Source of the DNA: a virus
Strand: one strand, 5' to 3'
DNA: 64,000 nt
IMG/VR virus record: IMGVR_UViG_3300042868_010462
Location: 83,875 to 147,874 of that record
The notes below the pieces were generated by a model, which saw only the letters and a list, made by a program, of their open reading frames with translations, had not been told where the DNA came from and did not search any database. How positions within the stretch are numbered: position 1 is the stretch's first letter; the number at the start of each line of letters is the position of its first letter. A program made the position numbers and the translations under genes. Shown in pieces: positions 1,047-13,559 of this stretch.

Positions 1047-1117
1047 AGCGGATAGTTGGTACTGCCCCAACTTATCTAGTTTGGAAGACTAGAACATTAC
1101 TTTTATGCTATGCCCGC
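1047..1117 (-). tRNA. tRNA-Gly(TCC), atypical T-loop
   Basis: Anticodon arm CTAGT-CTTCCAA-ACTAG; T-arm GTTGG-GGCAGTA-CCAAC. Confidence 0.8.
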
Positions 1118-4705: not shown

Positions 4706-5211
4706 CCTATAAAATCGTCAAATCCGTTGTTACTTAAAAAATCGTTATCTTCATCTATTTCTCTTATCTCGAACTCAAAACTTGATACATTACAAACTAC
4801 ATCTTTAGTGAATGTTTCGTGTATATAATCAAAGTCATCTGGAGATATTTGAACTTGTTCATCTTTAAATAATTTGAAAAGTTCCTTTGTATTTCTGTAA
4901 AGATTTGGGTATTGATAAGTTTTCAAAATACCATCCATTTCGAATACTTCAAATCTTTTGTAAAAATTATCGTTGTACATTAGAATATGTTCCTGAGCCC
5001 ACTCATTAACAACTTGAAGAATGAATGTCTTTAAACCCTGCATACAAGCTACCCTATAGTCCTCATATTGTTGTTCAACAGTTAAACTACCAATCTCAAC
5101 ATCATCAACCTCTTCTTCATATTTGGCAATTGTATCCAAGGCCAACATCTGTAATTCATCCCAATTTGTTTGATGTATTTTATAAAAGTTTACAACTACC
5201 ATTTCTTTCAT
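4702..5211 (-). CDS. hypothetical acidic protein
   Basis: ORF track, overlapping stop/start. Confidence 0.7.
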   Translation of the reverse strand: MKEMVVVNFYKIHQTNWDELQMLALDTIAKYEEEVDDVEIGSLTVEQQYEDYRVACMQGLKTFILQVVNEWAQEHILMYNDNFYKRFEVFEMDGILKTYQYPNLYRNTKELFKLFKDEQVQISPDDFDYIHETFTKDVVCNVSSFEFEIREIDEDNDFLSNNGFDDFIG

Positions 5212-5231
5212 TATTAAAGTGTTATTTAATT

Positions 5232-5873
5232 TTATTCCTTCGAATCTGTATCGTAAAACATTAAGTCAGAGTCTTCGGTTGCCCATTTATTATGTCCTTC
5301 ACAATTATAATAATCTAAATTAACTAGATAATCAGGTTTCTCAGGAAAATCTTTTGTGACAAAAGAAGGTTCATTCCATCTTATTCTATTGTTGGGTTGT
5401 AAGGCAATTTGTCCATTATCTAATAAGATGATGTGATGACACTTGTGTTCCATAGGGTCTTCTGACAATGTTAAATCAGTATTCATATCACTTGAACCCC
5501 AGTTAATTGTGCCAAAATAATTTCCATCATACCATTTCTTATCTTTCATAAAAACTGAAACCCGCATCCCATATACAAAACTAAGTTGAATGAGGGAAAA
5601 GTTATATGAAAAACAATTCCATAATTGCAGAAAATGAAAAGACAAATCAGGATTTGGTGTCTCAGGTTTTGTCAATAGTGCATGAGATGGTAATTTGTCT
5701 CTCATTACACCATTGTTCAATAAAACCTGAAACAAAACCGCCTGGTTTGGCATACACCGAATCGAAGTAACAATTCCTTCTGTAAACTCACCAAATCCTT
5801 TTTGGTGCTGATACATATATTCATTTCGAACATAAACTTTAAGTGGGAAAAAATTACTTTCGATATAAGCCAT
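5232..5873 (-). CDS. hypothetical phage protein
   Basis: 213-aa ORF in operon. Confidence 0.75.
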   Translation of the reverse strand: MAYIESNFFPLKVYVRNEYMYQHQKGFGEFTEGIVTSIRCMPNQAVLFQVLLNNGVMRDKLPSHALLTKPETPNPDLSFHFLQLWNCFSYNFSLIQLSFVYGMRVSVFMKDKKWYDGNYFGTINWGSSDMNTDLTLSEDPMEHKCHHIILLDNGQIALQPNNRIRWNEPSFVTKDFPEKPDYLVNLDYYNCEGHNKWATEDSDLMFYDTDSKE

Positions 5874-8775: not shown

Positions 8776-8851
8776 TGGTGGTGATGATTGGAATCGAACC
8801 AATATTAAACGATTTTCAGTCGTTCGCCTTGACCAACTTGGCAACATCACC
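8776..8851 (-). tRNA. tRNA-Phe(GAA)
   Basis: CTGAAAA loop, CCA. Confidence 0.92.
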
Positions 8852-8861
8852 ATAAAGTTTT

Positions 8862-8925
8862 GAGTAAGTATCCACCACGTTTAAGGCTGGCTGTGGACAG
8901 TGCTACCTACGACCTTTCCTTACTC
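8862..8925 (-). ncRNA. candidate small structured RNA
   Basis: GAGTAAG/CTTACTC closing stem, right after the TAACTTTG promoter (8931-8938) and before tRNA-Phe. Confidence 0.45.
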
Positions 8926-9390
8926 TTCTACAAAGTTACCATTTTTTTTTAATTTCCAAATATCTTTGTAAGTTTTTTTTAAAGTGGTCAAAATCCACCA
9001 CTTTAAGTTATTACTACACAATCCATAAAATGGTAAAAACCAATTAATGTAAAACTTGAACAATAAATTATTTTAAAAAAAATTTTGAATTTTACTTGGA
9101 TGTATGGTATTTGTTTTGTTTCTTTGTTAAACATTATTTCACTACTAAAAATTTAAAATTATGAACACACAATTGAGCACAACTTCAAAAATTATTGTTG
9201 GAATTATTTCTGTTGTATTATTATACAACGCTACTTACCTACTAGGAATTGTTGTAGGTTTTTTACAAGGTATTTTGGGTTAAAATTATTCTTTTAAAAG
9301 TAGAATTCGGATTTTATTTAAAAGTTCGAATTCTACTTTTATTATCTCTATTTCATTATACCAGGTAATAAAATCCCTCACTTTAGAATG

Positions 9391-9463
9391 TTCCCCCTGA
9401 TGGAATCGAACCACCATCCTCAGAATCAAAATCTGATGTAATCAACCATTATACCAAGAGGGA
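9391..9463 (-). tRNA. tRNA-Gln(TTG)
   Basis: TCAGA-TTTTGAT-TCTGA. Confidence 0.92.
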
Positions 9464-9479
9464 GTATTATTTTACCACG

Positions 9480-9491
9480 ATGTCAATGAAC
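9480..9491 (-). promoter_or_regulatory. boxA-like GTTCATTGACAT
   Basis: Exact copy of 3645-3656; lies between the terminator and the first tRNA. Confidence 0.55.
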
Positions 9492-9523
9492 AAAAAAAAC
9501 CCTGAACTTTATGGTTCAGGGTT
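9492..9523 (-). terminator. intrinsic terminator of putative attenuator 1
   Basis: AACCCTGAAC/GTTCAGGGTT stem plus T-run. Confidence 0.85.
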
Positions 9524-9547
9524 CTACTATCAAAAAATTATTAACAA

Positions 9548-9655
9548 TTATAATTCTATAGAATTTCCCCAACCATTACAAACACTCGGCTTTGACCAAC
9601 AATTGCTAAATTGTGGCTGAACCGATATGTTAATATGTTTGAAGAAATTTTTCAT
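9548..9655 (-). CDS. putative leader peptide MKNFFKHINISVQPQFSNCWSKPSVCNGWGNSIEL
   Basis: 35-aa ORF upstream of the terminator; its 3' end is complementary to the terminator arm. Confidence 0.72.
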   Translation of the reverse strand: MKNFFKHINISVQPQFSNCWSKPSVCNGWGNSIEL

Positions 9656-9703
9656 TTTTTTAGTTTGTTTATAAGTATTGCGAAATTAATAAAAAGTTTG
9701 GCT

Positions 9704-10014
9704 CAGAATGATTTTTTTCCAAAGTTGCAATTTTGTTTAGTTTGCTGAACTCATTCTTTATAACCTAAATTGACAGGATAGTGTTTGGTCAAATTTACAA
9801 GTTTTGATGTTTAAAGATTGCTGAATCTATCCCTCGTTCTATATAACGTAAATATAATTAAAAAGTTTCAAAAAGAAAAGAAAATTGGAAAAATTGGTTT
9901 CAGTATGGGTTTTTTGTTGAAGTTTATTTCCGTGCGATTGGAAAAATGAGTCAACAACTCAGCCTTGTGTTCGAATGATTCAATATTTGTATCTTAGTTT
10001 GCTGGAATCATACT
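9704..10014 (-). repeat. three stem-closed CAGCAA...CTG elements (candidate ncRNAs)
   Basis: Units at 9704-9757, 9774-9833 and 9901-10014 with different but complementary closing stems. Confidence 0.7.
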
Positions 10015-10039
10015 TTATAAACCAATTTTTCCTTTTCTC

Positions 10040-11437
10040 TTAGATTTCGATGATTGAGTATCTCTCTGAATTGATTGTCTCATTCATAATAGATACTGGT
10101 GTCATCTGTTTTCCACCCAATACTGACTTTACAATACTTGGTGAAAGACCTGAGATTAATGCAGTCCCCGATTCATCACATCTAACAGGAAAGTTTTTAT
10201 TCCTTGATTGAATATTCCAAAATATGATTTGTGGTAATGAATAGCCACTTTCATCATACATTCTTCTTATCATCTGAATCGCACTTTCAGAGTGACGTGA
10301 AGCTTGGTTAAATTCCATATCAGACATAATCAATATCTTAGAAGGCATATCTTCAGGTGATACACTATGTTTGATAGCTTGATTAAGAATAAGTTCGAAT
10401 ACTTTTTCTAAGTTAGTACTCATACCCCAATCCGCAACTAACATTTGGTCGTAGCGTTCTTTAAGTGTCCCCGAAACCTTTTCAAGTTGGGGCTTTTCAG
10501 AGAAAGTAATGAAAGAATCTTTGAAAACTCCTTCATTTCTTTCTGAGATATATAAACCTAAAGAAACTGCTACATCCAAACAACTAATACTACCAGAAAC
10601 TATTGAACTCATTGAACCTGACACATCAACTACAGGTAAAATTCTTTCAGTTGTACCTTCCATAAAGTTTGGTAAAGCTTTCCATTGCTCGTTTGCCAAT
10701 TCCCAACTACCTTGTTTCATTGTTTGAACAATGTTATAAGGATATATAGCACCAGCATTCACTTTGGTTTCACCTTTCTTTAGTTTTTCTAAATACTCAG
10801 TGAATCCAGTTGTGTCGTGTTTAGCAAAAGCCTTTGTGTATCTACCCATAGCCAAAGATGGAGTTTTTGAGTACTCAATCTCAGTCCATTGGTTTGCACA
10901 CATCTTTTGTTCGACAGTGTTGGAAACTCCTACCAATAATTTACGGAGGTTTTTAGGGGTGGTATTCAATGCTTTTCTAATTGCGTTGAAAATAACACCC
11001 TTTCTTGGTATCCACTTTGCACATAGTCCATTTTCTACAATAAGACCACTTACAAACATTCTGGTCGCCTCAGCTTCCAACTCGGTACCAAAAAGAACTG
11101 AAAGGTCATCCCATCTACCAAAGTATGGTATTGCTTGGATGTTCTTTTGAACAACATTTGGATGATTCTCCACAAGATACTTGATGATATCTCGGAAGAT
11201 TTGTCTTTCACCTGCTCCACCTCTTACATCTCTAACCCAAAATAGGATTTTCAATGCTGACAACGGATTCTCATTGAAAGCTTTTGAGAATGTTGAGATA
11301 AGTCTTTCCTTATCTTGTTTTCTCATAGCACCAATAGTAAAGAATAGGTTTACACATTCGTTCAAAGTTGAAGAATTAGTTACCATTCCATTTTCCGTGT
11401 AAGTGTCCTCTGATTGTAAGGCATCAATGAAGTTCAT
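10040..11437 (-). CDS. DUF2828-type TROVE/Ro60-like protein with C-terminal vWA domain
   Basis: TENG, RDVRGGAGER, GRWDDL, AKWIPR; vWA MIDAS VDVSGSM; SDMEF; IIFWN. Confidence 0.85.
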   Translation of the reverse strand: MNFIDALQSEDTYTENGMVTNSSTLNECVNLFFTIGAMRKQDKERLISTFSKAFNENPLSALKILFWVRDVRGGAGERQIFRDIIKYLVENHPNVVQKNIQAIPYFGRWDDLSVLFGTELEAEATRMFVSGLIVENGLCAKWIPRKGVIFNAIRKALNTTPKNLRKLLVGVSNTVEQKMCANQWTEIEYSKTPSLAMGRYTKAFAKHDTTGFTEYLEKLKKGETKVNAGAIYPYNIVQTMKQGSWELANEQWKALPNFMEGTTERILPVVDVSGSMSSIVSGSISCLDVAVSLGLYISERNEGVFKDSFITFSEKPQLEKVSGTLKERYDQMLVADWGMSTNLEKVFELILNQAIKHSVSPEDMPSKILIMSDMEFNQASRHSESAIQMIRRMYDESGYSLPQIIFWNIQSRNKNFPVRCDESGTALISGLSPSIVKSVLGGKQMTPVSIMNETINSERYSIIEI

Positions 11438-13067: not shown

Positions 13068-13559
13068 ATGGAAAAGGTACTAGTATTGAATGCGGATTTT
13101 ACACCTATTAATGTAACTAGTGTTTATAAAGGATTTACTTTAGTAAGTAAAGGAAAAGCTGAAGTGTTAAAAGCGAGTGACAAACCCTTATTATCAGGTA
13201 TGGGTGAATTTATACGTCCATTAATTATCAGATTATTAAACTTTGTCAAGTTCAGAGTTCATAAATTGAAAATCAATAGACATAGATTATATAAACGTGA
13301 TGGTCACGAATGTACTTATTGTGGAAGTAAAAGAAACCTTACAATAGACCATATTATACCAAAATCTAAAGGTGGACAAAATACTTGGATGAACTTAGTA
13401 ACTTGTTGTTCATCTTGTAATAGATTGAAGGGTGATAGAACACCAGACGAGGCAAATATGAAAATGAATATTAAACCTTATGAACCAACTATATTTTCAG
13501 ATATAATCAATTCATCAGTTGGGGATATTTGGGAAGAATTCAAAACAACATTCTATTAA
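13068..13559 (+). CDS. HNH endonuclease
   Basis: RD..CTYCG...TIDHIIPKSKGG...NLVTCC..CN..K. Confidence 0.9.
   Translation: MEKVLVLNADFTPINVTSVYKGFTLVSKGKAEVLKASDKPLLSGMGEFIRPLIIRLLNFVKFRVHKLKINRHRLYKRDGHECTYCGSKRNLTIDHIIPKSKGGQNTWMNLVTCCSSCNRLKGDRTPDEANMKMNIKPYEPTIFSDIINSSVGDIWEEFKTTFY

Follow-up and report, generated by a model that had tools for sequence, protein, structure and literature searches.

A candidate ribosome-mediated attenuator in front of a phage tRNA array

The leader unit and its alternative folds

The window, by which we mean the whole 64,000-nt stretch of DNA that was analysed, covers the 3' portion of a 148-kb virus record in IMG/VR (IMGVR_UViG_3300042868_010462, positions 83,875 to 147,874) with approximately 30% G+C. 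On its minus strand, a short open reading frame (ORF), an intrinsic terminator and a boxA-like sequence follow one another between a gene of the DUF2828/DUF7788 family and the first gene of a tRNA array. The features of this leader unit are as follows.

11437-10040, minus strand: DUF2828/DUF7788 gene, the directly upstream neighbour of the leader unit
384 nt, minus strand: spacer between the DUF2828/DUF7788 gene and the leader ORF
9655-9548, minus strand: leader ORF of 35 codons, with its ATG at 9655 and a TAA stop at 9550-9548
9649-9640, minus strand: region 1 (codons 3-6), which pairs with 9571-9562 in the full-length minimum-energy fold
9576-9559, minus strand: region 2 (codons 27-33), the predicted 5' strand of the antiterminator
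9526-9511, minus strand: region 3, used by both the predicted antiterminator and the terminator; it consists of the terminator 5' arm (9525-9514) plus three adjoining loop bases
9525-9496, minus strand: intrinsic terminator, with a stem of 12 pairs, a loop of 6 nt and a U8 tract (9499-9492)
9507-9492, minus strand: region 4, formed by the terminator 3' arm (9507-9496) and the U8 tract (9499-9492), which overlap
9491-9480, minus strand: boxA-like 12-mer GTTCATTGACAT, which starts immediately 3' of the U-tract
9463-9390, minus strand: tRNA-Gln (UUG), the first tRNA of the array, 28 nt past the U-tract

Beyond tRNA-Gln, the same strand carries tRNAs for Phe, His, Pro, Met, Ile, Lys, Cys, Trp and more. 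The upstream gene belongs to a family that is annotated as RNA-binding in many large tRNA-rich phages. The region upstream of the leader ORF is A-rich and holds no Shine-Dalgarno sequence, the absence of which is normal in Bacteroidota.

Conservation among relatives extends to the spacer that separates the DUF2828/DUF7788 gene from the leader (9700-10039, minus strand), for example around GAGTTCAGCAA at approximately 9752-9740, and this spacer could be the site of a leader promoter. Three relatives (L002, L005 and L006) carry an insertion of approximately 725 nt (at approximately 4740-5465) that lies some 25 nt 5' of the leader start codon. Thus, the leader's own promoter, if there is one, has to be very near the ORF, or else transcription has to cross the insert.

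A preliminary description of this DNA had proposed that the last leader codons, at 9576-9559, can pair with 9526-9511, and all of the bases and coordinates that it gave for this pairing are exact on the minus strand. ATGGTT (9576-9571) pairs with AACCAT (9516-9511) over 6 bp, GGGG (9570-9567) pairs with CCCT (9521-9518) over 4 bp that include one G.U pair and leave G9517 bulged, and TTCTA (9563-9559) pairs with TAGAA (9526-9522) over 5 bp, with AAA (9566-9564) left unpaired. The downstream partner does include the terminator 5' arm, as had been claimed. When the transcript is made to end before the terminator 3' arm, the proposed helix is the exact minimum-energy structure calculated by RNAfold. 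The best duplex between the ORF and the terminator 5' arm is formed by a segment of region 2 and has an energy of -12.9 kcal/mol, as compared with -8.9 ± 1.9 kcal/mol for 500 dinucleotide shuffles (p = 0.042). The duplex in the window is on its own suggestive, being marginally beyond chance, and becomes convincing once relatives are added.

The full-length transcript has the terminator form as its minimum-energy fold, at -49.4 kcal/mol, and the antiterminated form reaches -35.8 kcal/mol, a gap of 13.6 kcal/mol. Since the terminator form is far more stable, any switch must be kinetic, as in classical attenuators such as trp. In the full-length fold, part of region 2 (9571-9562) pairs with codons 3-6 (9649-9640) alongside the terminator, and this helix between regions 1 and 2 may serve as an anti-antiterminator in the modelled structure. 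Its sequence is not conserved in relatives, where each class has an upstream partner of its own, and some relatives instead pair AACCATA with TATGGTT. We therefore keep the helix between regions 1 and 2 solely as a class-specific feature. The 181-nt region 9480-9660 as a whole folds with a z-score of -6.05 against shuffles.

Region 2 ends 8 nt before the stop codon, and the segment of it that was scored in the duplex calculation ends 15 nt upstream of the stop; a ribosome positioned at the stop codon would cover just the 3' half of region 2. A second match to the terminator arm that had been singled out, GGTTCAG in codons 11-13 (9623-9617), is present in the window but is lost among relatives, which have GGTTCAA, AGTTCAG, AGTACAG or AATTCAA in its place. 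We have rejected it as a conserved element, and the match is probably incidental.

Recurrence of the unit in related phages

A nucleotide search of the phage collection using 9300-10100 as the query gave no match, and relatives were reached instead through the neighbouring DUF2828 gene and through motif scans. The unit of ORF, terminator and tRNA-Gln is also present in the contigs identified through DUF2828. For the scans, viral and metagenome collections were searched for the terminator motif and for tRNA sequences, and matches were kept when a tRNA lay less than 150 nt after the terminator. This yielded 58 terminator matches in phage-like contigs, representing 41 distinct sequences, which fall into seven leader classes whose arrays begin with Gln, Thr, Pro (two classes), Lys/Asn/Trp and Met (two classes). 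An eighth class (L055), which heads an array beginning with His, was recognised after the hypothesis had been formed. The ninth class is a second leader of the genome under study, leader A (4331-4263), whose terminator at 4235-4206 is of unrelated sequence. Eight of the nine classes came from one terminator-motif scan, and they are related modules rather than fully independent samples. The relatives are freshwater phage contigs that share the layout of short ORF, arm-complementary segment, gap, terminator and first array tRNA. The features of leader A are as follows.

4388-4360, minus strand: leader A promoter, a near-consensus TTGACA-17-TATATT
4331-4263, minus strand: leader A ORF of 23 codons
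4235-4206, minus strand: leader A terminator, whose 5' arm pairs with a 10-bp segment that ends 1 nt before the stop codon (p = 0.023)
4155-3676, minus strand: gene of 159 amino acids downstream of leader A
3656-3645, minus strand: identical boxA 12-mer, followed by tRNAs Asp, Glu, Met, Met and Tyr

The L055 leader, on the minus strand of its contig, contains three His, three Lys, three Phe and one Trp codon, and the array after it starts with His, Phe, Lys and Trp. Its first tRNA is located 153 nt past the scanned terminator motif.

The ORF is intact in 39 of the 41 distinct homologous modules. In one of the two others the contig ends within the leader (L046), and the second has an unrelated high-GC terminator (L152). 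In all 39 modules with an ORF, the distance from the stop codon to the terminator arm is 25-43 nt, and it is mostly 25-31 nt. The leader ORFs range from 23 to 38 codons across classes and have little in common past the first two or three codons. Within the Gln class, differences at codon positions 1, 2 and 3 number 48, 85 and 124, respectively; the amino acids His7, Ser11, Pro14, Gln15, Cys19 and Trp20 are invariant, with synonymous codon variation at Ser11, Pro14 and Cys19. Invariant residues combined with third-position differences would be expected if the identity of the tRNA being read matters. The substitution pattern is of the coding type, and we treat the leader as a predicted ORF.

Complementarity to the terminator 5' arm recurs at a constant place in these leaders. 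In 24 of 24 sequences tested, the best partner of the arm lies no more than 23 nt upstream of the stop codon (in L004 it overlaps the stop), with p values of 0.002-0.098 for the individual duplexes, and Fisher's test on the duplexes over seven classes gives p = 6e-8. The duplex in the L055 leader has p = 0.030, alongside the value of 0.023 for leader A. The region 2 segment of the Lys class is an exact copy of the terminator 3' arm, and in the Met classes the arm CCCTGGGCA goes with TGCTCAGGG or TGTCCAGGG as region 2. Immediately beyond the stem, the loop bases also pair with the nucleotides that precede region 2, and four pair types occur (G:C, G:U, U:A and A:U); an example is CTGAACAC with GTGTTCAG versus CTGAACAT with ATGTTCAG. 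In most classes these first loop bases are outside the terminator stem, yet they co-vary with region 2.

In an alignment of the Gln class (A2, 13 sequences), 84.5% of the cells of a 10-pair helix between regions 2 and 3 are paired, as compared with 23-63% for slid controls, and the terminator is 100% paired in all 13 sequences. No double compensatory changes were found within these 13 sequences; all of the changes are one-sided and wobble-compatible. Shuffle controls for co-variation within the class carry no information because one side of each pair is nearly invariant. ATGGTT is invariant in 13 of 13 sequences, including L004, which reads it in another frame. At the middle codon of region 2, TCA, TTA, TTG, TCG and TGG all occur, encoding Ser, Leu or Trp, and the pairing of this codon is preserved throughout the class except in the window and in L155, where TGG places G opposite G. 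The retention of ATGGTT across frames, together with codon changes that preserve pairing, points to a constraint at the RNA level on the end of the ORF.

The preliminary description had also put its reading at stake on whether the alternative helix is competitive and whether it is conserved. The helix between regions 2 and 3 is the predicted nascent fold in the window and in five of the nine other representatives that were folded. In the remaining representatives, a hairpin with the upstream region 1 holds region 2, which is the four-region trp layout. As for conservation, the high level of pairing in the Gln class is accompanied by an arm-complementary segment near the end of the ORF in all nine classes. 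Comparison of these sequences thus supports the interpretation of the unit as a predicted attenuator.

Leader codons and the boxA-like element

The codon content of each leader was compared with the array behind it. The leader score is the fraction of residues for which a tRNA is encoded within 4 kb downstream, and the background is the composition of long ORFs in these contigs. The z-scores of leaders matched with their own arrays are positive in nine of nine classes (1.0-4.3) and sum to 22.1, as compared with 2.9 ± 4.8 when arrays are reassigned to leaders in all 362,880 ways (p = 5.5e-6 at the amino-acid level). With seven classes, the permutation gives p = 0.0014 at the amino-acid level and p = 0.0016 at the codon-anticodon level. 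In four classes, the coverage of the leader is unmatched by any window of equal length taken from long ORFs of the same locus. The first 19 residues of the Thr-class leader are all amino acids of its own array, and a leader with seven Ser and four Phe codons precedes an array of Met, Phe, Phe, Ser and Ser. In the L055 leader, found after the hypothesis was in place, 18 of 29 residues belong to the array set (z = 4.2).

The match of the leader in the window is moderate: 18 of 34 codons fit its own array (z = +2.3), and amino acids of the genome's other array are under-represented in it (z = -3.1). The match rises to 23 of 34 only when a weak tRNA-Ser-like sequence at 8682-8590 is counted. Each tRNA has just one to three codons in the leader, which makes sensitivity to depletion of a single tRNA uncertain.

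The tRNA-Ser-like sequence (8682-8590, minus strand) is located between tRNA-His and tRNA-Pro and has a long variable arm and the anticodon loop CUUGAAA, with a Ser UGA anticodon. It is not called by ARAGORN, scores 22 bits against the Rfam tRNA-Sec model and has an imperfect acceptor stem; it may be a degenerate or unusual tRNA-Ser. At 1047-1117 (minus strand), Rfam likewise identifies a tRNA (40.7 bits) that is not called by ARAGORN.

The 12-mer that adjoins the U-tract in the window, GTTCATTGACAT, is GTTCTTTGACAT with one base changed (A for the central T), and relatives carry the exact GTTCTTTGACAT. When one genome per species was scanned for GTTCTTTGACAT with TGG directly behind it, 81 matches were obtained, mostly in Bacteroidota. 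At least 27 of the 81 lie in the 16S-23S spacer, downstream of tRNA-Ile and tRNA-Ala and at 56-193 nt from the 23S gene that follows, and 4 more are upstream of a 16S gene, so that the context is an rRNA operon in at least 31 of the 81. Bases that flank the rRNA-operon motif also match the phage units. The gamma-proteobacterial boxA consensus is GYTCTTTAANA (PMC5725501), and the GTTCTTTGACAT motif is one base away from it. The box is best read as a copy of a host-type rRNA-operon boxA. The occurrence of the motif in rRNA operons of Bacteroidota indicates that the host is probably a member of this phylum, with which the A-rich starts lacking a Shine-Dalgarno sequence are also consistent.

The Gln, ProA, ProB and Lys classes all have the box behind their terminator, and in three classes its distance from the U-tract is 0-4 nt. 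The Thr and Met classes are boxless and have their first tRNA 8-16 nt past the end of the scanned terminator motif. In most classes, the boxA or the first tRNA is found 0-37 nt after the U-tract, a distance so short that it leaves no space for a separate promoter. Since the boxA adjoins the U-tract, a polymerase that transcribes the boxA must have come through the terminator. We also considered the box as a sigma-70 promoter element, either a TTGACA -35 or an extended -10, and rejected this because neither its spacing to any -10 nor that to the 5' end of the tRNA is correct, and both vary.

Predicted mechanism, rival explanations and known systems

The unit has an upstream short ORF on the same strand, an intervening terminator, an antiterminator that a ribosome could mask, and cognate codons, as predicted for a member of the attenuator group. 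On these sequence grounds, we consider it probable that it is a ribosome-mediated attenuator of the trp/his type that heads a phage tRNA array and responds to tRNA supply. Transcription from an upstream promoter would enter the 35-codon leader, and the ORF would be translated with transcription and translation coupled. If translation runs smoothly to the stop codon, the ribosome would cover region 2, or would have just unwound it, while the polymerase makes regions 3 and 4. With region 2 masked, the terminator (9525-9496 and the U8 tract) would form and transcription would end before tRNA-Gln. An earlier stall would free region 2 to capture region 3 as it emerges, and the terminator would be pre-empted. 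The candidate stall sites are the codons read by tRNAs of the array, namely Gln, Phe, His, Pro, Ile, Lys, Cys and Trp. A polymerase that reads through would transcribe the boxA (9491-9480), onto which host NusB/NusE may be loaded, conferring resistance to Rho on the untranslated array and allowing the tRNAs to be made. The net effect would be a negative feedback in which the tRNA genes are transcribed when matching tRNAs are limiting. The geometry of stop codon and arm, the match between leader codons and tRNAs, and the position of the boxA against the U-tract fit the earlier proposal of read-through into tRNA-Gln. We hold as reasonably likely, with somewhat less assurance, the wider reading that a freshwater, probably Bacteroidota-infecting phage lineage gates whole tRNA arrays on demand through leaders made of array codons and a hijacked boxA. 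In this wider reading, a shortage of any one array tRNA, which could result from heavy late translation, from decay of host tRNA or from anticodon-nuclease defences of the host, would stall the ribosome, open the terminator and lead, by way of the boxA, to processive transcription of the array.

An unlikely alternative to the attenuator is that the ORF represents a small, ordinary phage gene that carries a terminator of its own, and that the tRNAs are produced by a fixed, unregulated leak-through or from another promoter. The complementarity of region 2 would in that case have arisen incidentally, from duplication of the terminator arm or from conservation of a Gly-x-Gly motif in the peptide. 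It is true that CCCTGAAC-type terminators are also found behind normal long genes in many low-GC contigs, that the peptide core is conserved at the amino-acid level, that the terminator is favoured thermodynamically and that the Gln class is without compensatory change. However, the leaders of the nine classes are nearly unrelated as peptides, and hence no protein is conserved among them, and in region 2 the middle codon swaps Ser, Leu and Trp while its pairing is kept outside the window and L155. Leak-through past an ordinary gene also leaves unexplained why leaders match the amino acids of their own arrays (p = 5.5e-6), why the complementary segment is constantly positioned just before the stop codon, and why bases beyond the terminator stem co-vary with region 2.

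Still less probable is a translation-independent RNA switch whose helices would be set by a bound factor, either an uncharged tRNA in the manner of a T-box or the DUF2828/DUF7788 protein. The strong structure of the leader RNA (z = -6.05), the annotation of the upstream gene (11437-10040) in an RNA-binding family and the missing Shine-Dalgarno sequence would suit such a switch, but the last of these is normal for Bacteroidota, and neither a T-box nor any other Rfam match is present. The ORF is intact and the spacing from stop codon to terminator is constant in all classes despite sequences that cannot be aligned, and the ORF shows third-position variation and synonymous changes, all of which argue against a switch that ignores translation. 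As for chance complementarity in AT-rich DNA combined with a spurious ORF, short ORFs are common in such sequence and the shuffle test of the single window gives just p = 0.042; nevertheless, the recurrence across nine classes, with the ORF intact in 39 of the 41 distinct sequences, together with the combined statistics, makes this explanation highly improbable and refutes it for practical purposes.

We compared the unit with known systems. Rfam searches of 8800-10100, at the gathering threshold and at E <= 10, returned no Trp, His, Thr or Leu leader family and no T-box. We discarded the sub-threshold matches (rli42, PyrR and similar) as noise from models of terminator-containing sRNAs, and the remaining matches are tRNAs. 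Thus, the unit would work like the amino-acid leader families of Rfam, yet it belongs to none of them.

In E. coli, trpL, hisL, thrL and ilvL are leader-peptide attenuators of amino-acid operons, and the thr and ilv leaders sense several amino acids. The phage unit shares with these four a short ORF, a terminator, a segment at the end of the ORF that pairs with the terminator 5' arm, a helix between regions 1 and 2, and codons linked to the product, and, like the thr and ilv leaders, it would sense several amino acids simultaneously. Unlike these leaders, it is phage-borne, is followed by a boxA and would control tRNAs rather than biosynthetic enzymes, and it uses one to three codons for each of 6-13 amino acids rather than a run of a single codon. 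The pheST attenuator of E. coli places phenylalanyl-tRNA synthetase under leader-peptide control by charged-tRNA supply. There, as predicted here, a component of the translation apparatus is controlled through the supply of charged tRNA, but pheST encodes a synthetase and its leader senses a single amino acid, whereas in the phage the tRNA genes themselves are downstream. T-box riboswitches resemble the proposed device in sensing the status of tRNA and in choosing between terminator and antiterminator; they bind the tRNA directly, lack an ORF and are marked by a specifier loop and a conserved T-box sequence, features of which the phage unit shows none. Like the boxA of rRNA operons and of lambda nut, the phage element heads a long untranslated transcription unit, and its 12-mer matches the boxA of the Bacteroidota 16S-23S spacer. 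Unlike the rRNA-operon boxA, it is phage-borne and located before tRNAs, directly behind a terminator that would be conditional, and it is a predicted NusB/NusE site.

A full-text search of literature outside subscription journals turned up no report in which tRNA genes, or the tRNA arrays of phages, are controlled by a leader peptide. If our interpretation is true, the unit would be a viral monitor of the tRNA pool and the first leader-peptide attenuator known for tRNA genes, extending classical attenuation from amino-acid supply to tRNA supply, and the phage would have borrowed an antitermination signal of host rRNA operons. To our knowledge, little has been established about when, and at what level, phages express their tRNA genes. 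The reasons for which phages carry tRNA sets are debated, with codon usage, decay of host tRNA and escape from anticodon nucleases among those put forward. A leader that mirrors its array predicts which shortages switch that array on, which makes the question of tRNA sets directly testable, and the nine classes are a ready comparative set for the design of experiments. The leaders could also provide compact natural sensors of the availability of multiple tRNAs for synthetic biology.

The preliminary description had extended read-through past tRNA-Gln and onward, and this part of its proposal is uncertain in the phage studied here because a hairpin-bearing insertion follows tRNA-Gln. The insertion (9161-9341), between tRNA-Gln and tRNA-Phe, is missing from the near-identical relative L155. 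It carries an ORF of 40 amino acids on the plus strand (9161-9283), which is hydrophobic, and a perfect 20-bp hairpin (9295-9341). Read on the minus strand, this hairpin (9341-9295) could be a two-way terminator that severs tRNA-Gln from the remaining array. A short minus-strand ORF before tRNA-Phe (9134-9003) was considered as a further leader and rejected; it has no U-tract terminator on the same strand and lies inside an insertion that is missing from relatives. Elsewhere in the window, an HNH endonuclease gene (13068-13559, plus strand) stands amid minus-strand genes and is probably a homing-type insertion.
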